Of a stretch of 64,000 nt of DNA, positions 4,243-63,525 are shown one piece after another (the first letter of the stretch is position 1; every line of letters starts with the position of its first letter). The notes beneath the pieces were generated by a model. It did not search any database and had not been told where the DNA came from. It worked only from the letters and a program-made list of their open reading frames with translations. A program made the position numbers and the translations under genes. Source of the stretch: Calditrichota bacterium (GTDB lineage Bacteria > Calditrichota > Calditrichia > RBG-13-44-9 > J042); contig JAADJD010000062.1 of the NCBI GenBank assembly GCA_013150955.1, forward strand, positions 49,416-113,415, read 5' to 3'.

Positions 4243-5547
4243 TTGATCAGCGAACTTATTCTCTACACAATTGTCTTCTTCATCTTACTCAGTCTCTCCG
4301 CTTTCTTTTCCGGTTCAGAAACAGCTTACTTCTCCCTGTCGCCGGCCACGGTGGATCGTTTTCGCAGTTCGCGGAAACGGGCTGAACAACGAGTAGCCAC
4401 CCTGTTAACCAATCCGCGGCAGTTGCTGATCACCATCGTTGTCGGGAACACGCTGGTAAACATCACCACCGCCTCGCTGGCGGCCATCCTGACCGAGCGC
4501 ATCTCCAGGGCCATGCAGGTCAGCCAGCACATTGGCCTCATCGTTGATGTGATTGTAGTAACCTTTGTCATACTGATTGCCAGCGAAATATTGCCCAAGG
4601 TGATTGCCGTCCGGGACGCCGAACGATACGCCCGCCTGAGCAGTCGCTTTCTTTCCTTTTTCTACTACCTGATTTTTCCCGTCAGCTATTTCCTGGCCCG
4701 ATTCACCCGATTCCTCCAGAAACGCCTGGGATTCACCGAGGACAAAACTTTCCTCTCCGAAGAGGAGCTGAAAACTCTGGTGGAAATGGGGGAAGAACAC
4801 GGGACGCTTCAAAAGGACGAGCGGGAAATGATCCACAGCATCTTCGAGTTTGGGGAAACTACAGTAAAAGAGATTATGGTTCCGCGAACAGACATGGTTT
4901 GCGTGGAGGCCAGCACCACCCTTACCGATCTTATGAAACTGGTGAAAACCAAATTGCATTCGCGCATTCCCGTCTATAAGGGGCGGATTGATAACGTCAT
5001 TGGAATACTGTATGTTAAAGACCTGCTGCCCTATCTCACCAAACGGCGCCGGGAACGGCTGGATCTGGAGAAGCTGGTTCGTCCGGCTTACTTTGTACCC
5101 GAACAAAAGAAGATCGACGAACTGTTGCGCGAGTTCCAGAAAGAACGCATCCACATGGCACTGGTGGTGGATGAGTACGGGGGCATTGCGGGACTGGTTA
5201 CCCTGGAGGACATTATTGAGGAAATCGTTGGAGAAATACAGGACGAGTACGACAAGGAAGCGCCATTGTACAAAAAAATCGATGAAAACACCTTCATCGT
5301 GGATGGCCGCATGCCGCTGGAAGAAATCAACGAGGAACTGCACCTGAATCTGCCCACAGAAGAAGGGTTCGAAACCATCAGCGGATTCATCCTGAGCAAG
5401 CTGGGAGCCCTTCCCAAAGAAAAGGAAAAAGTCGAGTACGATGGTTACGTGTTCATCGTCGAACGGGTAACCCGGAATCGCATCATCAAGGTGCGGATTG
5501 AAAAGATACAACCGGATGTGCGGGTAGAGGATGAAGTCCAGAGCTGA
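4243..5547 (+). CDS. HlyC/CorC-family protein (DUF21 membrane domain, CBS pair, CorC_HlyC C-terminal domain)
   Basis: The N-terminus has four hydrophobic helices with the GSETAY motif, followed by CBS domains and a transporter-associated C-terminus. A TTG start at 4243 sits 13 nt downstream of AGAGAGGAGA. Confidence 0.8.
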   Translation: MISELILYTIVFFILLSLSAFFSGSETAYFSLSPATVDRFRSSRKRAEQRVATLLTNPRQLLITIVVGNTLVNITTASLAAILTERISRAMQVSQHIGLIVDVIVVTFVILIASEILPKVIAVRDAERYARLSSRFLSFFYYLIFPVSYFLARFTRFLQKRLGFTEDKTFLSEEELKTLVEMGEEHGTLQKDEREMIHSIFEFGETTVKEIMVPRTDMVCVEASTTLTDLMKLVKTKLHSRIPVYKGRIDNVIGILYVKDLLPYLTKRRRERLDLEKLVRPAYFVPEQKKIDELLREFQKERIHMALVVDEYGGIAGLVTLEDIIEEIVGEIQDEYDKEAPLYKKIDENTFIVDGRMPLEEINEELHLNLPTEEGFETISGFILSKLGALPKEKEKVEYDGYVFIVERVTRNRIIKVRIEKIQPDVRVEDEVQS

Positions 5548-6922
5548 GCACGAGGTTGTACTTCGGGCCATTCCACCTGTAAAGGAATTGCTTGACCATC
5601 CCCTTTTCCAACTATTTCCGGTCTCTCGACCCTTTTTAAAACGCATCATTCAGCAGGAAATCGAACGCTTCCGCCAGCAGGTAGTTCAGCAACAGCTGGC
5701 CATCACGCCGGAATCTGTGGCCAGGCGGCTGCAGGAACAGATTACCAATCGGCTTCGTCGACTGGTATCGGCGCAACTCACGCGGGTCATCAACGCCACG
5801 GGTATCATCGCCCACACCAATCTGGGACGGGCCCCACTGGCACCGGCGGCCATCGAGGCCATCCGTCAGCTGGCGGGAGGCTATTGCAACCTGGAATTTC
5901 AGCTGGCCTCTGGAGGTCGCGGCCGCCGTGAATCCAATGTGGAAACCCTGCTCCAGCTGCTGACCGGTGCTGAAGCGGCGCTGGTAGTCAACAACAACGC
6001 GGCCGCGGTTTTGCTGGTCTTGCACGCCCTGGCCCGGCGACGCGAAGTGATTGTATCCCGCGGTGAACTGGTGGAAATCGGGGGCTCCTTTCGCCTGCCA
6101 GAAGTGCTGCAGACCAGTGGTGCCAGGCTGGTAGAAATTGGCACTACCAACAAAACCCGCCTGGATGATTACCGGAAAGCCATTGGTCCCCGCACGGCAG
6201 CCATTTTGAAAGTCCATCCCAGTAATTATCGCGTGGTGGGGTTCACCCAGTCGGTGGCGATCCAGGAACTTTCCCCGCTGTGCCGGAACCACGGCATCCC
6301 ACTGATTTACGATCTGGGCAGCGGAGCCCTGGTCGATCTGCAACAATGGCAACTCCCGGCAGAACCGGTGGCATCCCGGGCGCTGCAGGATGGCGCGGAC
6401 ATCGTCACCTTCAGCGGCGATAAGGTGCTGGGAGGCCCACAGGCCGGAATCATCATCGGCAAGAAGGCGTATCTGGATAAAATTCGCCGGCACCCGTTAA
6501 CCCGCGCCCTCCGCTGCGACAAATTGACCTACGCCGCATTGGAAGCCACCCTGCGATTGTATTTACAGCCGGAATCACTTCCACAACACCTTCCGGTCCT
6601 GCATTTGCTAACCACCCCGGTGGAACACCTGCGCCAACGGGCACAAACCATCGTCGATACGCTAACCACCCGGGCTGTCCAGGCACGCATTGTTCCCTCC
6701 ACGGCACAAATGGGCAGTGGTGCCCTGCCGCTGGAGACCATACCTTCCATTGCCGTGGAACTGACCCCGCGGAAATTCTCCGCTGCCACCATCGCCCGCA
6801 AACTGCGGCAAAACTCGCCGCCCATCATTGGCTACGTGCAGGATGAAAAAGTTTTCCTGGACATGCGCACGGTGGACGCTTCCGAACTGGCCGAGATTAT
6901 CAAAGCCATTAACCGGCTGTAG
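5531..6922 (+). CDS. selA: L-seryl-tRNA(Sec) selenium transferase (selenocysteine synthase)
   Basis: The PLP-lysine motif FSGDKVLGGPQAG is present. The protein is about 460 aa. It overlaps the preceding gene by 17 nt. Confidence 0.85.
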   Translation: MKSRAEHEVVLRAIPPVKELLDHPLFQLFPVSRPFLKRIIQQEIERFRQQVVQQQLAITPESVARRLQEQITNRLRRLVSAQLTRVINATGIIAHTNLGRAPLAPAAIEAIRQLAGGYCNLEFQLASGGRGRRESNVETLLQLLTGAEAALVVNNNAAAVLLVLHALARRREVIVSRGELVEIGGSFRLPEVLQTSGARLVEIGTTNKTRLDDYRKAIGPRTAAILKVHPSNYRVVGFTQSVAIQELSPLCRNHGIPLIYDLGSGALVDLQQWQLPAEPVASRALQDGADIVTFSGDKVLGGPQAGIIIGKKAYLDKIRRHPLTRALRCDKLTYAALEATLRLYLQPESLPQHLPVLHLLTTPVEHLRQRAQTIVDTLTTRAVQARIVPSTAQMGSGALPLETIPSIAVELTPRKFSAATIARKLRQNSPPIIGYVQDEKVFLDMRTVDASELAEIIKAINRL

Positions 6923-7029
6923 ACAATTGGACATACTCCCGGGTTTTTCCTTAGCCCGGCCTTGTCTCTCGATGCGTCCCCGAAGAAAGACCTCCTTATT
7001 TGCACCCGGAAAATGTTCGGCTTACATTT

Positions 7030-7235
7030 TTAACCCGGATTAAGCATAAACAACCTGCTACAGGGGGATTTAATATGCATTAGCCTACGAATTACACGAA
7101 TTAAAACAAATAAAAATACAAAAACACATTGGATGGCAGCCGGATTCAAATTTGTTTCGGGATTTATTCGCGATTTTGAGGGTATGGTTTGGATGCATTT
7201 GCATAATTCTTGGTTTGATGCATCACTTGGGTTAA
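7030..7235 (-). mobile_element. MITE-like TIR repeat element copy A (reverse orientation, with extra internal terminal copy)
   Basis: It starts TTAACCCGGATTAAGCAT and ends CATCACTTGGGTTAA. The core is similar to other copies. It sits between selA and selB. Confidence 0.6.
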
Positions 7236-7389
7236 CTATCCACCGATTCAAAAAAATTTCTTTCAGGTAGCTTTACGGAAACATTGTCTCTCAAAAATTT
7301 ATATTTATTTTTGCTCAATCGCGTCATTCGTGGTCCAAGGCTTGATTTGGGTTTATTTTATTTTAAGACCCGGCAACGAAGGGGTGGGA

Positions 7390-9318
7390 ATGCGGACAGG
7401 AAGACAATACGTCATCGGAACGGCCGGTCACATTGATCACGGAAAAACGGCCCTGGTAAAGGCTCTGACCGGTGTGGATACCGATCGGTTGCCGGAGGAA
7501 AAGGCGCGCGGCATTACCATTGATCTGGGATTTGCCCATTTAAACGATCGCATCACCATCATTGACGTTCCAGGACACGAGCGGTTGATAAAAAATATGG
7601 TGGCCGGCGTCAGCACCATCGATCTGGTGCTGTTTGTGGTGGCCGCCGACGATGGCCTGATGCCACAGACCCATGAACATCTGGAAATCGTTCGTTTATT
7701 AAATATTCCCCGGGGTGTTTTTGCCCTCACCAAAATCGACCTGGTCTCCCCGGAGTGGTGCGAGCTGGTGAAAAGCGAGCTGCAAAACCGCCTGAAAGGA
7801 ACCCCCTTTGAACAGGCACCCATCGTTCCCACCAGTGTGGTGACCGGGGAAGGCATCCAGACCCTGAGAGAAACCCTTTTGCAAATGCTACGAGAAATAC
7901 CGCCGCGAATGAGCCGGGACTATTTTCGAATGCCGGTGGATCGGGTGTTTACCCGCAAAGGATTTGGTACCATTGTAACCGGCACCGTGCTAAGTGGCCA
8001 GCTAACGACGGGCACCTTACTGGAGTTGCAACCTTCCGGGAAGACGGTGCGCGTGCGCGGACTGCAGACGCATGGACGGGACGTGGACTCCGTGGAAACG
8101 GGCGATCGTGCGGCGCTGAATCTGGCCGGCGTTGAGCAACAGGAGGTTAAACGTGGAATGGTGCTCATCACCCCGGACTATGCAGCACCGGCCGAATCTC
8201 TGACCGTCTACCTGCAGGTGCTTTCCGACTCCCCAATCCCCCTGAAAAGTCATCAGCGGATCCGCCTGCACATTCATACCGAAGAAGTCATGGGACGATT
8301 GGTCATCCCCGGCAACCAGGCACTGCCTCCGGGACGTTCCGCTTACATTCAGATCCGTCTGGAAAAGCCCATCCAGGCGTGCTACGGGGATCGGTTCATT
8401 GTGCGTCAGTACTCGCCCCAGGTCACCCTCGGTGGGGGCATGGTGCTCCAGGTCAATCCCCCGCGATTCCGAAAAAAGTGGGAATCCCTTTTTCTGGAAA
8501 CCGCCCGCCAGCTTCATCAGGGCACACCGGAGGAACGTATCCTGGCGTTGTTGAATCCCCTGACCGTGAAGCCGCTCTCCTTCCGGCAACTGCAGGTGGG
8601 GACGGATCTTCCCGCCGGGGAGTTGACCAGGCGGCTTCAGTCCCTCCTCTCCCGGAAGGACATTCACTCCCTTATCCTGGACGGCCACCCCCACTATTTT
8701 TCCCGGTTTCAGGCCCGGGTCATTTTACACGATTTGCAGCGAATCCTGGAAAAATACCATCACGACCACACTCTGCTCCCTGGAATGCCGCGGAAGGAGT
8801 TGCTGGCCGCCATGCCACATCGTTATCACCCGGATTTAATCGCCGCTGTTCTTGATCTGGGAATTCAGGGAAATCACATTCAGGTGGTGGGGAATCGACT
8901 GGCATTGCCAGCGCATGCGACCCGGTCGTCTGCCGACACGGAAGCCTGGCTGCAGCGCTTGCGTAACGCCATCGAATCTGCAGAGTGGCGTCCACAGCCG
9001 ATCGAATCCATTGGCCGGGAACTGGAAATTCCTCGCAAAACATTAAAGACGCTACTAACCCTGCTCATTGAGTCGGGAGAAATCTATCCCGTAAACCACA
9101 CCTATTACCTATCCCGAGATGCATACCAGAAGATGGTGCAACGGGTACGGGACTATTTTCAGAAAAAGGCACACATGCGGGTCAGCGATTTTAAAACGCT
9201 GCTGAACATCACCCGAAAACACGCCATTCCCTTGCTGGAATTTCTGGATGCCCGGGGCATTACCCGACGGGAAGGGGATGTGCGCCTGGCGGGAGACCGG
9301 CTACAGGCCGATCCCTGA
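7390..9318 (+). CDS. selB: selenocysteine-specific translation elongation factor SelB
   Basis: GTAGHIDHGKT is a P-loop, and DxPGH is present (IIDVPGHE). A long C-terminal extension of about 300 aa is consistent with the winged-helix SECIS-binding domains. ATG at 7390 follows GAAGGGGTGGG. Confidence 0.85.
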   Translation: MRTGRQYVIGTAGHIDHGKTALVKALTGVDTDRLPEEKARGITIDLGFAHLNDRITIIDVPGHERLIKNMVAGVSTIDLVLFVVAADDGLMPQTHEHLEIVRLLNIPRGVFALTKIDLVSPEWCELVKSELQNRLKGTPFEQAPIVPTSVVTGEGIQTLRETLLQMLREIPPRMSRDYFRMPVDRVFTRKGFGTIVTGTVLSGQLTTGTLLELQPSGKTVRVRGLQTHGRDVDSVETGDRAALNLAGVEQQEVKRGMVLITPDYAAPAESLTVYLQVLSDSPIPLKSHQRIRLHIHTEEVMGRLVIPGNQALPPGRSAYIQIRLEKPIQACYGDRFIVRQYSPQVTLGGGMVLQVNPPRFRKKWESLFLETARQLHQGTPEERILALLNPLTVKPLSFRQLQVGTDLPAGELTRRLQSLLSRKDIHSLILDGHPHYFSRFQARVILHDLQRILEKYHHDHTLLPGMPRKELLAAMPHRYHPDLIAAVLDLGIQGNHIQVVGNRLALPAHATRSSADTEAWLQRLRNAIESAEWRPQPIESIGRELEIPRKTLKTLLTLLIESGEIYPVNHTYYLSRDAYQKMVQRVRDYFQKKAHMRVSDFKTLLNITRKHAIPLLEFLDARGITRREGDVRLAGDRLQADP

Positions 9319-10297: not shown

Positions 10298-11269
10298 ATG
10301 CAGGTACCGGATTGGGAAGACATTCGCCAGGCGGCAAAACGAATCGCGCCTTTTGTGAAGCGAACCCCCGTCTTCACCAGCGAAACACTGAACCGGTTAA
10401 CCGGCGCCCACCTGTTTTTTAAATGCGAAAACTTTCAGAAAGTGGGGGCTTTCAAGTTTCGGGGGGCCTGTAACGCCGTATTTTCATTGAACGATTCCGA
10501 AGCCCGAAAGGGCGTGTGCACGCATTCTTCGGGGAATCACGCCGCGGCCTTATCGCTGGCGGCCCGCCTGCGGGGCATCCCGGCGTATGTGGTAATGCCG
10601 GAAAATTCCCCGCGGGTGAAAGTGGACGCGGTACAACATTATGGTGGACAGATCACCTTTTGTGCCCCCACCCTGACTGCCCGGGAACAAACCCTGCAGA
10701 AAATTCAACAGCAAACCGGAGCGGTGTTCATTCATCCCTACAACAATTTTCTTGTAGTGGCGGGGCAGGGCACCGTGGCGCTGGAATTTCTGGAGGCCAT
10801 CCCTGACCTGGACATCCTGCTGGCACCGGTTGGTGGCGGTGGGTTGATGAGCGGTACCTGTCTGGCCGCTTCCGTGCTGCGGCCGGATATTCAGTTAATC
10901 GGTGCAGAGCCTGCGGCCGCCGATGATGCCTGCCGCTCCCTGCAAACGGGTAAAATTATCCCGCCCGAAAATCCCCGGACCATTGCCGATGGATTGCGCA
11001 CGTCCCTCTGTCCCCTCACCTTCCAGGTGCTCCAGCAGCATCTGGACAGCATTCTGACCGTCAGCGAGGAAGGAATTGTTCAGGCCATGCGCCTGATCTG
11101 GGAACGCATGAAAATTGTGGTGGAACCGTCTGCCGCCGTGCCCTTTGCAGCCGTTCTGGAACACAAAAATCGTTTTCGCAACCGGCGGGTGGGGATCATC
11201 CTGAGCGGAGGGAATGTGGATCTGGACAGGCTGCCCTGGTTTTCCCCGGCACCCGATGCCCGCAATTAA
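10298..11269 (+). CDS. PLP-dependent serine/threonine dehydratase family enzyme (serine-racemase-like)
   Basis: FKFRGACNAV is a PLP-lysine motif, and the SSGNHAAAL and GGGGL glycine-rich loops are present. An AGGAGG RBS precedes ATG 10298. The stop TAA 11267-11269 lies inside the TTAA terminus of the repeat element. Confidence 0.75.
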   Translation: MQVPDWEDIRQAAKRIAPFVKRTPVFTSETLNRLTGAHLFFKCENFQKVGAFKFRGACNAVFSLNDSEARKGVCTHSSGNHAAALSLAARLRGIPAYVVMPENSPRVKVDAVQHYGGQITFCAPTLTAREQTLQKIQQQTGAVFIHPYNNFLVVAGQGTVALEFLEAIPDLDILLAPVGGGGLMSGTCLAASVLRPDIQLIGAEPAAADDACRSLQTGKIIPPENPRTIADGLRTSLCPLTFQVLQQHLDSILTVSEEGIVQAMRLIWERMKIVVEPSAAVPFAAVLEHKNRFRNRRVGIILSGGNVDLDRLPWFSPAPDARN

Positions 11270-11440
11270 CCCAGATTACGTATTAAACCACCAATTGCAC
11301 GAATTAACACAAATTAAAAATAATCAAATACATTGGATCAAATCTGGATTAAAATTTGTTTTGGGGTATATTCGCGATTTTGTGGATATGGTTTGGTTTC
11401 ATTCGCGTGATTCGCGGTTTCATGCATTATCTGGGATTAA
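11266..11440 (-). mobile_element. MITE-like element copy B (reverse orientation, about 175 bp)
   Basis: TTAACCCAGATTACGTATTAAACCACCAATTGCACGAATTAACACAAAT ... TTCATTCGCGTGATTCGCGGTTTCATGCATTATCTGGGATTAA. Confidence 0.65.
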
Positions 11441-22440: not shown

Positions 22441-22844
22441 CCCGATTTAAAATGAACGTTTCAACCCACTTCTGACTACCCAACACTTTCCCTTCGCCGG
22501 CTCAAGCCCCCCAACAACCCTGTGGGTTGATCTTCAGCGCTGGAGACACGTTTCGACGTTTGATGTCTCTCCAAATCAAAAAAATATAATAAATGGGCCT
22601 ACCCAAATCAAAAGCCAAAACCAGAACCCTGTGGACGCGATTCTATCCCCGCACAAATTTAGCCAAAAATACCCATCAAATGCCACCGGTGAATGCAATG
22701 CCAACATTAATTTTGGAAAGGAAAATCGTTAATCCATGAGGAAAGGGATAGCATTGAAGATCGGGTATCTGTCGGGTTCGGAACGATCCCGTATCGGCAA
22801 GTTCTTGTTCCCCCATTTTTCTTTGATGAAAACTTGCCCCGTAT

Positions 22845-23062
22845 CAGGTATGAAACCACGAATCACACGGATAAAACCAAAAATATCCACAAAATCACGA
22901 ATAAACACCGAAACAAAATTCCGTCCAGATCTAATCCAATGTACTTTTTTATTTTATTTGTGTTCATTCGCGTCATTCGTGGTTCTAATGCATAATCTGG
23001 GTTTATTATTTTTATTCGTTTTAATTCGTGTCATTCGTAGGCTATTGCATAATCTGGGTTAA
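22845..23062 (+). mobile_element. MITE-like element copy C (forward, duplicated right terminus)
   Basis: GAAACCACGAATCACACGGAT ... TTCATTCGCGTCATTCGTGGTTCTAATGCATAATCTGGGTTTA plus a second copy ...CGTAGGCTATTGCATAATCTGGGTTAA. Confidence 0.6.
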
Positions 23063-23242
23063 AAAACGCTTCTCTGAAGAGGCCATTCACGTCGCATTAC
23101 TGGATCAGGAAGAATATGGGGATAAAAACGGGATTCTGGTGATCACGGCAGAGCGGTTTCTTGAGAGATTCATTTAATTACCGGGGAAAATCATTATACT
23201 TTTTCCAGGGCTAAAAGCGCTGGATCCGATGCTCCATCGCGA

Positions 23243-25107: not shown

Positions 25108-25276
25108 TTTTAACCTAAATAAAGCATCAACCACGAATCACGCGAATGAATCCAAAAAAATTTCAACAAAATAACGAATTAACCCTGGAACACATCCAGT
25201 TATAAAAAAATTTATTTTGTTATTGTAATTCAGGTGAATTCGTGTGATTCGTGGGCAATGCACAATCTGGATTAAA
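25108..25276 (+). mobile_element. MITE-like element copy D (forward)
   Basis: TTTTAACCTAAATAAAGCATCAACCACGAATCACGCGAATGAA ... GTGAATTCGTGTGATTCGTGGGCAATGCACAATCTGGATTAA. Confidence 0.6.
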
Positions 25277-27019: not shown

Positions 27020-27862
27020 ATGACCACGGCACTTTCCGATACCCAGATCGAAAAACTCCGCCAGACCGTCTGGAAGGCTCTGAAAAATGCCGGAATCTCT
27101 CCACACCCTCCTGAAGGAAAGTTCTGGCAACCAATCATTGTTCAGGAAAAAAATCGTCGCCAGCGGTTTCTTTCTGCATCCCAACCGGATGCTCGCACGC
27201 TGGCCACATTCATTGATCACACCCTGCTTAAACCCGAGGCCGGGAAATCCCGCGTCGAACAGCTTTGTCAGGAAGCGCAAAAGCACGGATTCGCCGCCGT
27301 ATGTGTGAACCCGGTTTACGTTCCCCTTGCTTCCCGGCTGTTACAAGATTCACCACCAAAGATTTGCAGCGTGGTGGGCTTTCCCTTAGGTGCCAATCTT
27401 TCGTCCATTAAAGCGCAGGAGGCCCGGCAGGCCATTTCCGATGGTGCAACGGAAATTGACATGGTGCTACACGTGGGAGCCCTGAAAGACCGGGATCTGG
27501 TGGCTGTGTATCGGGATATTCGGTCGGTGGTGGAGGTGTGTGATGAGCACGAGGTTCTCTGCAAGGTCATCCTCGAAACGGCGCTCCTGGAAGATGAGGA
27601 AAAAGTTCTGGCCTGTGAATTGTCCGCACTGGCCGGGGCGGCCTTTGTGAAAACATCCACGGGATTTGGCCCTGGCGGGGCAACCGAACAGGACGTGGCA
27701 TTGATGGAGCGCGTGGTGGCGCCCTACCGCATGGGAGTGAAGGCATCCGGTGGCATCCGCAGCTGGCAGCAGGCGGTAAACATGATCCATGCCGGCGCCA
27801 TACGGATTGGAGCCAGTGCCAGCGTGAATATCGTGACCGAAGTACAGATCAAACCCAAATAA
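27020..27862 (+). CDS. deoC: deoxyribose-phosphate aldolase
   Basis: DeoC signatures FIDHTLLKPEA, AAVCVNP, KVILET and VKASGGIRS are present. ATG 27020 follows GAGGGAA. There is roughly a 60 aa N-terminal extension relative to typical DeoC. The stop lies in a repeat-element terminus. Confidence 0.75.
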   Translation: MTTALSDTQIEKLRQTVWKALKNAGISPHPPEGKFWQPIIVQEKNRRQRFLSASQPDARTLATFIDHTLLKPEAGKSRVEQLCQEAQKHGFAAVCVNPVYVPLASRLLQDSPPKICSVVGFPLGANLSSIKAQEARQAISDGATEIDMVLHVGALKDRDLVAVYRDIRSVVEVCDEHEVLCKVILETALLEDEEKVLACELSALAGAAFVKTSTGFGPGGATEQDVALMERVVAPYRMGVKASGGIRSWQQAVNMIHAGAIRIGASASVNIVTEVQIKPK

Positions 27863-27963
27863 AGCGTTAAACCACGAATCACGCGAATGAATTCGAATCA
27901 TATCAACAAAATAGCGAATATATTCGGGATAAACATCTTCATCCAGATAGAATCAAGTACATT
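27857..27963 (+). mobile_element. MITE-like element partial copy E1 (left half; its terminus overlaps the deoC stop codon)
   Basis: AACCCAAATAAAGCGTTAAACCACGAATCACGCGAATGAATTCG... It lacks the right TIR and abuts copy E2. Confidence 0.5.
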
Positions 27964-28215
27964 TTAACCCAGATAATGCATTAAACCGCGAATCACGCGA
28001 ATGAACATAAAAAATATCAATAAAATCACTAATAAACCTCGGAGCGAATTTTCATACAGATCTAAATCAATGGATTTTATTGTTTTTATTTGTGTTAATT
28101 CGTGCAATTCGTGGTTTAAAGCATAATTTGGGTTTATAAAGCATAATTTGGGTTTAATATTTTTATTTGGTGTGAATTCGTGTAATTCGTAGGCTATTGC
28201 ATAATTTGGGATTAA
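27964..28215 (+). mobile_element. MITE-like element copy E2 (forward, full length with duplicated right terminus)
   Basis: TTTTAACCCAGATAATGCATTAAACCGCGAATCACGCGAATGAAC ... TTAATTCGTGCAATTCGTGGTTTAAAGCATAATTTGGGTTTA ... GTGAATTCGTGTAATTCGTAGGCTATTGCATAATTTGGGATTAA. Confidence 0.65.
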
Positions 28216-33400: not shown

Positions 33401-33444
33401 ATCGATCACCCCGCCCATCCCGTTCGATTCATCGCAAATTAGGT

Positions 33445-33633
33445 TTTAGCTCATGAATGACACGAATTAACTCAAATACAGCGTTAAACCGCAAATCACG
33501 CGAATAAATTCGAAAAAAATCAACAAAATAGCGAATATGTCCGGGAAAACATTTTCATCCAGATAGAATCCAGTGCGTATTTTTATTGGTGTACATTCGT
33601 GTCATTCATAGGCGAATGTATAATCCGGGTTGA
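33445..33633 (+). mobile_element. MITE-like element copy F (forward)
   Basis: ...CAGCGTTAAACCGCAAATCACGCGAATAAATTCG ... GTACATTCGTGTCATTCATAGGCGAATGTATAATCCGGGTTGA. Confidence 0.55.
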
Positions 33634-33757
33634 TCATTCCCTCTTGAGCCAATCACAGGCAATTGGCATTGATTTTGAAATATTCATTCGGCGGAAATTG
33701 AAATCCCTGCAAAATTGACACATCAGGAAAAATTTAAAACCGAAAGGGGGTGACAAA

Positions 33758-34510: not shown

Positions 34511-34673
34511 TTAAACCCAGAATATGCATTAAACCGCAGATCACGCGAACGAATCCAAAAAATCTCAACAAAATAATGAATAAACCCCGGAACCTATTTT
34601 CATCCGGTTATTTTGTCAATTTTGTTCATGTGAATTCGTGTCATCCGTGGTTTACGTAAAATCTGGATTGAAT
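34511..34673 (+). mobile_element. MITE-like element copy G (forward)
   Basis: TTAAACCCAGAATATGCATTAAACCGCAGATCACGCGAACGAATCC ... GTGAATTCGTGTCATCCGTGGTTTACGTAAAATCTGGATTGAA. Confidence 0.6.
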
Positions 34674-35949: not shown

Positions 35950-36315
35950 TCAAGGCAATAGCTCCCATCGATGAACCCGGATGCGATGGGTAGTGGAATC
36001 GAGGGTTCCATAGACGCGAACCCGTTTGTTCCGCAAAGATTCATCCTGCAGCAGGCGCCGGGATTCCGGTGTTTCCTCAAAATACCAGATGTCAGCATTT
36101 TCGGTCTGTAAAACCCCAAGGTGAGGATACTCACTGTCGGAACGATCGGCATCTACCGGGCAGCTCAGCGCACAGGCCAGGCAAATCAGTTTCCCTTCCA
36201 CCACGCCATCACCCGCAAACCCTTCTGACAAAAACAGGCCCATCAATCCCAGCAAGGCAATATGAATCATCCAGAGTTTAACAAAAATTGGCATCACGAA
36301 GCCATCTCCTTTCAA
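35950..36315 (-). CDS. hypothetical exported protein (121 aa) with CLACALSCP motif
   Basis: The N-terminus is hydrophobic. No recognised domain. Confidence 0.4.
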   Translation of the reverse strand: MKGDGFVMPIFVKLWMIHIALLGLMGLFLSEGFAGDGVVEGKLICLACALSCPVDADRSDSEYPHLGVLQTENADIWYFEETPESRRLLQDESLRNKRVRVYGTLDSTTHRIRVHRWELLP

Positions 36316-36325
36316 GTTAATTCCA

Positions 36326-36550
36326 GTTTTAATCCCTAATGATGCATTAGACCGCGAATCACACGAATGAACCTTAAAATATCTACAAAATCACGAATAA
36401 CTCCCGAAACAAAACTTCACACGGATATAATCCAATGTACTTTATTATTCTTATTTGTGTTCATTCGTGTAATTCGTGGTTCTAATGCATAATCTGGGTT
36501 TATTTGTGTTCATTCGTGTCATTCGTAGGCTAATGCATAATCTGGGTTAA
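36326..36550 (+). mobile_element. MITE-like element copy H (forward, duplicated right terminus)
   Basis: TTTTAATCCCTAATGATGCATTAGACCGCGAATCACACGAATGAACC ... TTCATTCGTGTAATTCGTGGTTCTAATGCATAATCTGGGTTTA plus TTCATTCGTGTCATTCGTAGGCTAATGCATAATCTGGGTTAA. Confidence 0.65.
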
Positions 36551-36595
36551 TTGGGGATTCCACGAATCCATTTTCACGCATCAGGACAAATCGGG

Positions 36596-38496: not shown

Positions 38497-38571
38497 CCGT
38501 TCGAAATCATCTCTTTTTTAACCGAACATGCCACACGTTAATTTAACATATTTTCCCGAAACACTTCCATT

Positions 38572-38744
38572 TTAACCCCAATAATACATTAAACCGCGAA
38601 TCGCGCGAATGAAACCAAATCATATCCACAAAATTTCGAGTAAACCCTGAAACAAATTTTCATCCCGATATAATCAATGGGCTCTATTATTTTTTGTGTT
38701 CATTCGTGTCATTCATGGTCTAAAGCATAATCCGAGTTTAACCC
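38572..38744 (+). mobile_element. MITE-like element copy I (forward)
   Basis: TTTTAACCCCAATAATACATTAAACCGCGAATCGCGCGAATGAAACC ... TTCATTCGTGTCATTCATGGTCTAAAGCATAATCCGAGTTTAACCC. Confidence 0.6.
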
Positions 38745-40712: not shown

Positions 40713-40794
40713 TCGAAGCTTGTCTTTCCTGATTTTCTCGTAAACAAAAAAATATAACCAACCCACTACAGGGTTTCAACTGCTTTCTGGATAT

Positions 40795-41067
40795 TTAACC
40801 CAGATTAGCTTTAGACCACAAATTGCACGAATTAACACAAATAAAAATAATAAATTACATTAGACTGCGTCTGAATGAAAATTGGTTTCCGGGTTTATCC
40901 CCGATTATACATTAGCCTACGAATGACACGAATTAACACGAACAAAATAATAAAATCCGTTTGATCATATTCGGATAAAAAATGTGCTCCAGGATTTAAT
41001 CACTATTTTGTTGGTATTTTTAGGATTCATTCGCGTGATTTGTGGTTTACTGTATGATTTGGGTTAA
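40795..41067 (-). mobile_element. MITE-like element copy J (reverse orientation, compound, about 270 bp)
   Basis: TTAACCCAGATTAGCTTTAGACCACAAATTGCACGAATTAACACAAAT ... ATTAGCCTACGAATGACACGAATTAACACGAAC ... TTCATTCGCGTGATTTGTGGTTTACTGTATGATTTGGGTTAA. Confidence 0.6.
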
Positions 41068-41243
41068 TTTCACGGGACTGGATATCCATTTCCTGCCACT
41101 CAAACTGTCCGCATTCGTCAGTGGCTAATCCGCTATTCTGTCGAAAAGTCCACGGGAAATATTCATGAGGTGTCGAAAGAAGATGAAAGAGGTATGTTCC
41201 CGGGAAATGGGGGAAGCCCCATCCCCGGGCTGAAGGTCATTGT

Positions 41244-55432: not shown

Positions 55433-55524
55433 GAAATGAACAATCCCTTCCTGCGTCCCGGTGCAGGAAGGGATTCACCCATCCCAAAGTTTTCCCGATT
55501 CGCCCCATTAATCATCGGCTATCC

Positions 55525-55652
55525 AATAAACCCTCAACAAGTTTCCATCCAAGATATAATCTTTTTATTTGTGTTCATTCGTGTTATTCGTGGTCTCATG
55601 GATAAATCGCATTGTGTCGCGCTCATCGTGCTCAAAACAGAATCCAGATTAA
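55525..55652 (+). mobile_element. MITE-like element partial copy K (right half only)
   Basis: AATAAACCCTCAACAAGTTTCCATCCAAGATATAATCTTTTTATTTGTGTTCATTCGTGTTATTCGTGGTCTCATGGATAAATCGC ... CAGATTAA. Confidence 0.45.
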
Positions 55653-63211: not shown

Positions 63212-63360
63212 CAATGTGGACTTTTCCCCGTTGCATTAAGTGTTTAAGCATGTAACGACTCGAATTACCCTGAATACACAACGCTTAAGTAAAGATGTTC
63301 ACGCAGATAAAACGAACCGCGATTTGCAAAAATTCCTCTGAAACCATTCGATTTGAAGCC

Positions 63361-63525
63361 AAGTAATGCATTGAACCGCGAATCACGCGAATGAACACAA
63401 AAAATATCAATTAAAATCACGAATAAACCTCGAAGTGAATTTTCATACAGATCTAATCCAATGGATTTTATTAATTGGTATTAATCCGTGCAATTCGTGG
63501 TCTAACGCAGAATTTCGGCTAAATG
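63361..63525 (+). mobile_element. MITE-like element copy L (forward, diverged right terminus)
   Basis: AAGTAATGCATTGAACCGCGAATCACGCGAATGAACAC ... ATTAATCCGTGCAATTCGTGGTCTAACGCAGAATTTCGGCTAA. Confidence 0.55.

Follow-up and report, generated by a model that had tools for sequence, protein, structure and literature searches.

The IS1380 family of insertion sequences includes ISEcp1, ISPme1, and IS1380 itself, and the transposon piggyBac carries a 13-bp terminal inverted repeat (TIR) together with 19-bp subterminal repeats. As prokaryotic relatives of piggyBac, IS1380 transposases have served as its outgroup (PMC10813416); alternative right ends are also on record for the IS1380 family (PMC9330008). 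Small bacterial elements of the MITE type (e.g., Correia/NEMIS of Neisseria, ERIC, RUP, Nezha, and Chunjie) are non-coding, TIR-bounded, and present in multiple copies; they show target duplications, lie between genes, form hairpins, and sometimes alter gene ends. All of these traits recur in a repeat family that we describe here from a 64-kb window (the whole stretch of Calditrichota DNA analysed), which very probably represents a non-autonomous MITE of the IS1380 family. Like IS1380-family insertion sequences, the window units have a terminal 17 bp starting CC(C/T)A(G/A)ATT and an AT-rich 5-bp duplication; however, while the insertion sequences are 1.4–1.7 kb long and encode a transposase, the window units measure ~165 bp, encode none, and carry an additional inner module. 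No earlier description of such elements in Calditrichota was found in the literature, and nothing relevant was found there on the arm sequences, on GxxExxY, or on MITEs in Caldithrix.

Repeat copies and gene context in the window

A profile built from seven copies and run with nhmmer identified 11 full units (~165 bp) and eight to nine fragments or extra arms in the 64-kb window; these pieces amount to ~2.5 kb (3.9%) of it. Units range from 152 to 166 bp in length, with compound copies of up to 265 bp. The sequence-only reading had listed 13 loci, all of which were recovered both by the profile and by direct reading; it had not included the extra arms at 7300–7355 and 33429–33478. The copies are the following.

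7030..7235, minus strand: compound copy between selA and selB, with a full unit (7074-7235) and a degenerate extra end (7034-7073); nhmmer E=3e-33.
7300..7355, plus strand: solo right-arm fragment, profile positions 119-174; nhmmer E=2e-5; array match at 7317-7332.
11265..11440, minus strand: full unit 11270-11435 (profile match 11266-11439); perfect 5-bp duplication, ATTAA/ATTAA.
22838..23063, plus strand: three-armed copy; the unit ends at 23001 (profile match 22838-23005) and the second right arm at 23058 (profile match 23003-23062); the left end is degenerate, while the end at 22985-23001 equals the insertion sequence right-end consensus at 17 of 17 positions.
25109..25276, plus strand: full unit 25114-25271 (profile match 25110-25275); flanks TTTAA/TTAAA.
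27852..27965, plus strand: partial copy comprising the left two-thirds of a unit, profile positions 4-116; nhmmer E=9e-24.
27963..28215, plus strand: unit 27968-28132 (profile match 27964-28136), an end duplication reaching 28152, and a right arm reaching 28210 (profile match 28150-28214); the end of this extra arm (28194-28210) equals the insertion sequence left-end consensus at 17 of 17 positions.
33429..33634, plus strand: full unit 33467-33633 and an extra inverted solo arm (33429-33478), both by nhmmer.
34511..34672, plus strand: full unit 34516-34667 (profile match 34512-34671); flanks TTAAA/TTGAA.
36329..36551, plus strand: three-armed copy 36334-36546 (profile match 36330-36502 plus arm 36500-36550); perfect duplication, TTAAT/TTAAT; both right arms (36482-36498 and 36530-36546) equal the insertion sequence right-end consensus at 17 of 17 positions.
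38571..38741, plus strand: full unit 38576-38736 (profile match 38572-38740) between miaA and mutL; perfect duplication, TTTAA/TTTAA.
40794..41068, minus strand: tandem copies between mutL and a DUF5723 gene, one partial (40799-40903; profile match 40795-40898) and one full (40899-41063; profile match 40895-41067), with TTTAT at 40899-40903 common to both.
55523..55609, plus strand: fragment with an internal part and a right arm, profile positions 67-168; nhmmer E=2e-9; array at 55577-55592.
63354..63522, plus strand: full unit with decayed ends; nhmmer E=4.5e-45.

The two arms of a unit are, as the sequence-only reading had proposed, imperfect inverted repeats; they span 40–62 nt and are 75–87% complementary. 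The strands of the nhmmer matches bear out the earlier statement that copies occur in both orientations, and their orientation relative to the flanking genes varies as well. Pairwise identity among the window copies is 67–87% (mean 74%); this divergence, together with the decay of several target duplications, marks the family as old. The 17-mer at the outer end occurs 15 times in the window at up to three mismatches (0.13 expected), and the sub-repeat CRCGAATnnCRCGAAT occurs 27 times (0.17 expected), always inside copies. Conservation per column is highest in the inner arrays formed by this sub-repeat (0.87–0.91) as compared to the 17-bp ends (0.79–0.82). The units have no coding capacity, and only spurious ORFs run over their arms; the pseudo-peptide FIRVIRGLMH noted earlier is a correct translation of the right arm, and the family does explain the spurious small ORFs. 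Window copies fold end to end, equally well on both strands, with z-scores down to -9, and many of them lie directly downstream of stop codons. A BLAST search of the element and its inner module against plasmid and phage collections returned chance AT-rich matches only, and no enrichment of promoter-like or terminator-like sites was found within 22.7–41.3 kb of the window.

The window is ordinary chromosome, with selA, selB, serS, mutL, miaA, upp, ybeY, an SNF2 helicase gene, and genes for transporters and sensor proteins. The Pfam-annotated and largest ORFs, a set that takes in all but a few mid-sized ORFs, are all housekeeping and include no transposase, and a tblastn search of the window with the IS1380 transposase gave no match, in agreement with the earlier statement that the window holds no transposase gene; no Y1_Tnp domain was found among the Pfam-scanned window ORFs. 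Copies were said to be always intergenic, and they do lie mostly in gene gaps; however, two of them reach gene ends. The stop codon (11267–11269) of a gene encoding a PLP enzyme falls in the ATTAA target duplication, and the last codons (..KPK) and the stop codon (27860–27862) of a DeoC-family gene are supplied by the fragment at 27852–27965.

The selA and selB genes are adjacent (window 5531–9318) and are parted by the compound copy at 7030–7235 and the solo arm at 7300–7355, the latter overlapping the start of selB in its longest possible form; the window yielded no tRNA genes at all, tRNA-Sec included.

IS1380-type ends, target duplications, and empty sites

Metagenome contigs were scanned for the outer end of the arms (TAATGCATWATCTGGGTTWA); at least 120 contigs matched, with G+C contents between 22% and 56% and with interiors that are in many cases unrelated. 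Ten autonomous elements from metagenomes (1393–1410 bp) share their ends with the window units. The outer 17 bp of the window arms (CCCAGATTATGCATTAG / CCCAAATTATGCAATAG) correspond to the right-end (CCCAGATTATGCATTAG) and left-end (CCCAAATTATGCAATAG) consensus of these elements and represent IS1380 terminal inverted repeats, several window ends being identical to them at 17 of 17 positions. Each of the ten elements contains a single 437-aa ORF that ends ...GEKRKWLDGLFD... and has its stop codon within the right end. This ORF matches Pfam PF13701 (DDE_Tnp_1_4) and NCBIfam NF033539 (“IS1380 family transposase”; 276 bits vs. a cut-off of 180), and the encoded transposase shares 30% identity with that of ISEcp1 and 52% with annotated IS1380 transposases of Aliarcobacter. 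The left end of ISEcp1, taken from a plasmid record (CCTAGATTCTACGTCAG), has 12 of 17 positions in common with the 17-bp end. A second IS1380 clade, with 1.65-kb elements and a 465-aa transposase (34% identical to the 437-aa protein), also has CCCAGATWATGCA ends and 5-bp duplications, indicating that the ends are conserved across this branch of the family. The type of autonomous partner for which a search had been suggested is represented by IS1380-family insertion sequences that carry the same 17-bp ends and come from other organisms; in viral contigs, the only IS1380 relatives found were ISEcp1-like copies. Many other non-coding families (36–374 bp) with the same ends were found in metagenomes, one of them (L130) being an internal-deletion derivative.

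Dozens of the metagenome MITE families with these 17-bp ends (96–374 bp) are unrelated to one another. Minimal elements consist of two ends with 0–30 nt between them (L114 1914–1943, L105 2538–2584, L060 1096–1170, and L109/L139/L151); an example is the 30-bp perfect palindrome TTAACCCAGATAATGCATTATCTGGGTTAA. On a 2.8-Mb contig, a Y1_Tnp (IS200/RAYT-like) gene (L199 2881–3636) adjoins an element of the 1.65-kb IS1380 clade.

Identical 5-mers flank 36 of 55 non-redundant two-ended elements that carry these ends in metagenomes, as compared to 12.7 ± 2.9 (maximum 23) when partners were permuted in 2000 trials. No more than four elements have 5-mers that match solely in inverted orientation, and the next five bases outward never matched. 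Duplicated pentamers include TTAAA, TTTAA, TTTAT, and TTAAT (TTWAW), and an annotated Aliarcobacter IS1380 element that interrupts a DMT transporter gene is flanked by ATAAA/ATAAA. In the window, four copies show perfect 5-bp duplications (11270–11435, ATTAA; 27968–28152, TTTAA; 36334–36546, TTAAT; 38576–38736, TTTAA) and five more match at four of five positions; because the target pentamers are so alike, the four perfect window duplications are weak evidence by themselves, and it is the metagenome elements that provide statistical support. In the sequence-only reading, the termini coincided with TTAA. The TTAA-like insertion sites are real, and the flanks support the target duplication that had been proposed; however, this duplication is 5 bp long rather than TTAA, and since the five bases outside CCC...GGG are direct repeats, TTAA belongs to the target, with the element itself running from CCC to GGG.

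The closest MutL relative is 82% identical, and the best MutL relatives carry the names Calditrichia or Calditrichaeota. A 16-kb contig of this relative (L047), syntenic with ~34–47 kb of the window, contains no copy. Four orthologous gaps in this contig are 170–480 bp shorter than in the window; at 82% MutL identity, the relative is too distant, and its gaps too diverged, for a base-by-base alignment of junctions. The copies at 38571..38741 and 40794..41068 are missing from their orthologous gaps, and at the 40.8-kb copy the flank on one side aligns with the relative right up to the element end. The repeat family has probably expanded after the split from the nearest sequenced relative.

One of the window gaps also contains a 121-aa ORF on the minus strand (35950–36315) that has no Pfam match; this gap is ~480 bp longer than in L047 after subtraction of the MITE, and the ORF may be a small gene specific to this lineage or else non-coding filler.

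Taken together, the units are small and non-coding, have TIRs and direct duplications, occur as dispersed copies, and share the ends of autonomous elements found in other organisms, all of which supports the earlier view of a MITE-like, non-autonomous, TIR-bounded element. An IS1380-family DDE transposase supplied in trans would recognise and bind the outer 17 bp and may direct insertion into AT-rich pentamers (TTWAW) with duplication of 5 bp. Mobilisation in trans is what we infer here, since the autonomous IS1380 elements recovered include none from this genome or other Calditrichia; the transposase may come from a full-length insertion sequence that is located elsewhere in the genome or was formerly present. 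The window copies themselves contain no gene for an IS1380-type DDE transposase, and for this reason they are filed as IS1380-derived MITEs and not as IS1380 elements.

The preference for TTWAW could also explain where copies are found. Because TTWAW is common near stop codons and between genes, and because the ends recreate TTWAW, copies accumulate in gene gaps and beside each other, and repeated insertion at recreated sites may have produced the tandem and three-armed copies. A second right arm is present in three copies (22838–23058, 27968–28210, and 36334–36546), for which the use of alternative right ends could likewise account. The perfect duplication at 36334–36546 encloses the whole three-armed unit, suggesting that it moved as one piece. 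At 28116–28156, the right end of the element is duplicated in tandem (~20 bp; AAAGCATAATTTGGGTTTA twice), and it is the second copy of this 20-bp duplication that forms the perfect TTTAA/TTTAA pair with the left flank.

Inner heptamer arrays

The ~40-bp TIR is composite, and only its outer 17 bp represent the IS1380 end. Further inward, each arm consists of AACC-(CRCGAAT-nn)2-3, which directly adjoins the 17-bp end on either side of the window units. The sequence-only reading had compared its sub-repeats to paired transposase-binding sites; the repeats do exist, but the 14 autonomous IS1380-family elements read from the two clades all lack the CRCGAAT arrays, and the arrays also occur as a stand-alone module. 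A 21-mer from the module (TTCATTCGYGTSATTCGYGGT) was found in at least 46 genome contigs from at least 10 phyla; hosts include Planctomycetota, Verrucomicrobiota, Acidobacteriota, Desulfobacterota, Pseudomonadota (Sulfuricella), Bacteroidota, Chloroflexota, Spirochaetota, Hydrogenedentota, and other Calditrichia, the 11 Desulfobacterota contigs representing one genome. The stand-alone module was found in 11 viral contigs as well. It takes the form of inverted pairs, AACC-(CRCGAAT-nn)2-4 ... (nn-ATTCGYG)2-4-GGTT, with loops of 5–98 nt, or of solo arrays (e.g., L018 2349–2404, L019 2775–2846, and L177 3934–4022). In the matched genome contigs it lacks IS1380 ends, and no 5-bp target duplication was found in its flanks; complementarity between the arms of one module element is not kept beyond ~18–27 nt. 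An Rfam search of the window and 19 loci gave no family for the module.

Sister modules combine AACC with tandem heptamers of a different sequence (CACAGAT, AACGAAT, or CACGGAA) and occur in some cases inside IS1380 ends and in others alone (L072, a ~165-bp element; L147 7898–8065; L083 8102–8267; L053; L002; L020). Arrays located directly inside IS1380 ends were found in other MITE families at L072 (CACAGAT), L147 and L083 (AACGAAT), and L065.

When 131 ORFs neighbouring the module were compared with Pfam for a gene partner, the matches were scattered housekeeping functions, with PDDEXK_3/GxxExxY found twice and PIN once. In two orthologous loci from Acidobacteria (L007 7379–7813 and L027 3819–4240), CGCGAAT arms tightly enclose a gene encoding a GxxExxY nuclease (122 aa, PD-(D/E)XK; TIGR04256, E=4e-42); one arm overlaps the ribosome-binding site of this gene and the second lies directly against the stop codon, an arrangement that resembles a mobile cassette. 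A truncated GxxExxY gene was also observed beside two further hairpins (L026).

On a viral contig of the Mu-like type, four CACGAAT units form an array (L050 2700–2765) that replaces ~36–60 nt at the 5′ end of a MuA-like gene and appears to supply the start codon of this transposase gene. Two related contigs (L183 and L184), 96–98% identical to L050 over the rest of the MuA-like gene, have no array at this spot, and an interpretation of the arrays as multi-site transposon ends of the Mu/Tn552 type was rejected. The possibility that the AAC...GTT feet mark integron attC sites was also rejected after the flanks were read, as the two sides are not complementary.

Most likely, the inner module originated as a palindromic repeat in its own right, became enclosed by two IS1380 ends, and was amplified with them; the stronger conservation of the arrays relative to the 17-bp ends is not obviously expected of a purely passive passenger. 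It is possible, though still doubtful, that A-ACC-(C[AG]CGAAT + 2-3 nt) x2-4, with its sister versions, is an undescribed palindromic element of multiple phyla, which either represents a novel type of non-autonomous mobile element that moves without target duplication or serves as an array bound by a widespread protein. On this view, the module would have entered IS1380 ends more than once and been amplified there as a compound MITE.

Alternative explanations and comparison with known systems

The mosaic of extra and tandem arms, the intergenic sites, the hairpin potential, and the conserved inner arrays would also be compatible with REP/BIME- or REPIN-like units that are spread by a RAYT or kept for a host function. 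We consider this origin very improbable, as the ends match IS1380 TIRs exactly and 5-bp direct duplications flank the copies, whereas REP/RAYT systems are not known to make target duplications; in addition, the units are ~165 bp long vs. 20–40 bp for REP, and the scanned window ORFs include no Y1 transposase. Long hairpins with strongly negative z-scores and the position of many copies just past stop codons could equally point to structured RNA genes or cis-elements (an sRNA, a terminator, or an mRNA-stabilising hairpin) with a conserved fold. A known structured ncRNA family was the alternative that the sequence-only reading had itself named, and several results make it scarcely credible. Rfam gave no match at the gathering score and chance-level matches only at E values up to 10. 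Paired cells make up 80.8% of the alignment vs. 81.9 ± 0.7 in column shuffles, the covariation score (0.087) lies below the shuffle mean (0.103), no compensatory changes were found, and the RNAalifold consensus reaches only -3.8 kcal/mol; furthermore, copies lie in either orientation to neighbouring genes, and both strands fold equally well. Separate conservation of each arm accounts for the pairing in the hairpins.

A third alternative retains the IS1380 affiliation and differs in its view of the arms: the whole ~42-bp arm would be the native end of an unsampled IS1380 subgroup, with the arrays as subterminal transposase-binding sites. The direct contact between arrays and 17-bp ends on both sides, the same placement of other heptamers in at least three MITE families, and the status of the arrays as the best-conserved columns in the window copies are all in line with this proposal, as is the analogy with piggyBac, which has subterminal repeats (PMC5381638) and for which IS1380 represents the outgroup (PMC10813416). 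However, the arrays are missing from all 14 autonomous IS1380-family elements, and they occur with neither an IS1380 end nor a 5-bp duplication in the genome contigs of 10 or more phyla and in the viral contigs described above, which makes a native end unlikely. The interpretation of the window units as IS1380-type MITEs with a composite arm is preferred.

An IS1380-type MITE family is of an ordinary kind; as far as the literature search showed, it is new in Calditrichota, and its unusual part is the inner arms. Locally, the family accounts for spurious small ORFs, two altered gene ends, and ~4% of the region. More broadly, this IS1380 branch keeps near-identical 17-bp ends and a TTWAW target in hosts with 22–56% G+C and has spawned many MITE families, so that the 17-mer plus a 5-bp duplication provides a practical search key for metagenomes. 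No known family, enzyme, or RNA model is attached to the module whose 21-mer was found across at least ten phyla; if this module is a true independent element or a protein-binding array, it would be the real discovery here.

As compared to other bacterial MITEs, those in the window differ in their IS1380 parent family, their Calditrichota host, and their composite arms. They share with REP, BIME, and REPIN sequences the mosaic palindromic units in gene gaps, but are bounded by TIRs of the DDE insertion sequence type and flanked by target duplications, with no RAYT gene among the scanned window ORFs. Mobile insertion cassettes and transposable modules resemble the window units in that insertion sequence ends surround DNA foreign to the insertion sequence; here, however, the passenger is a palindromic repeat module and not a gene, whereas the stand-alone module at L007 and L027 is cassette-like in the other sense, its arms enclosing GxxExxY as a passenger gene. 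With piggyBac, the window units have in common a TTAA-containing target, CCC directly after the duplication, and a short TIR combined with subterminal repeats (PMC5381638). While piggyBac is eukaryotic and uses a strict 4-bp TTAA, the window units are prokaryotic, have a 5-bp TTWAW target, and have relatives whose transposase is of the IS1380 type; this parallel suggests that they may offer a prokaryotic model of the superfamily.
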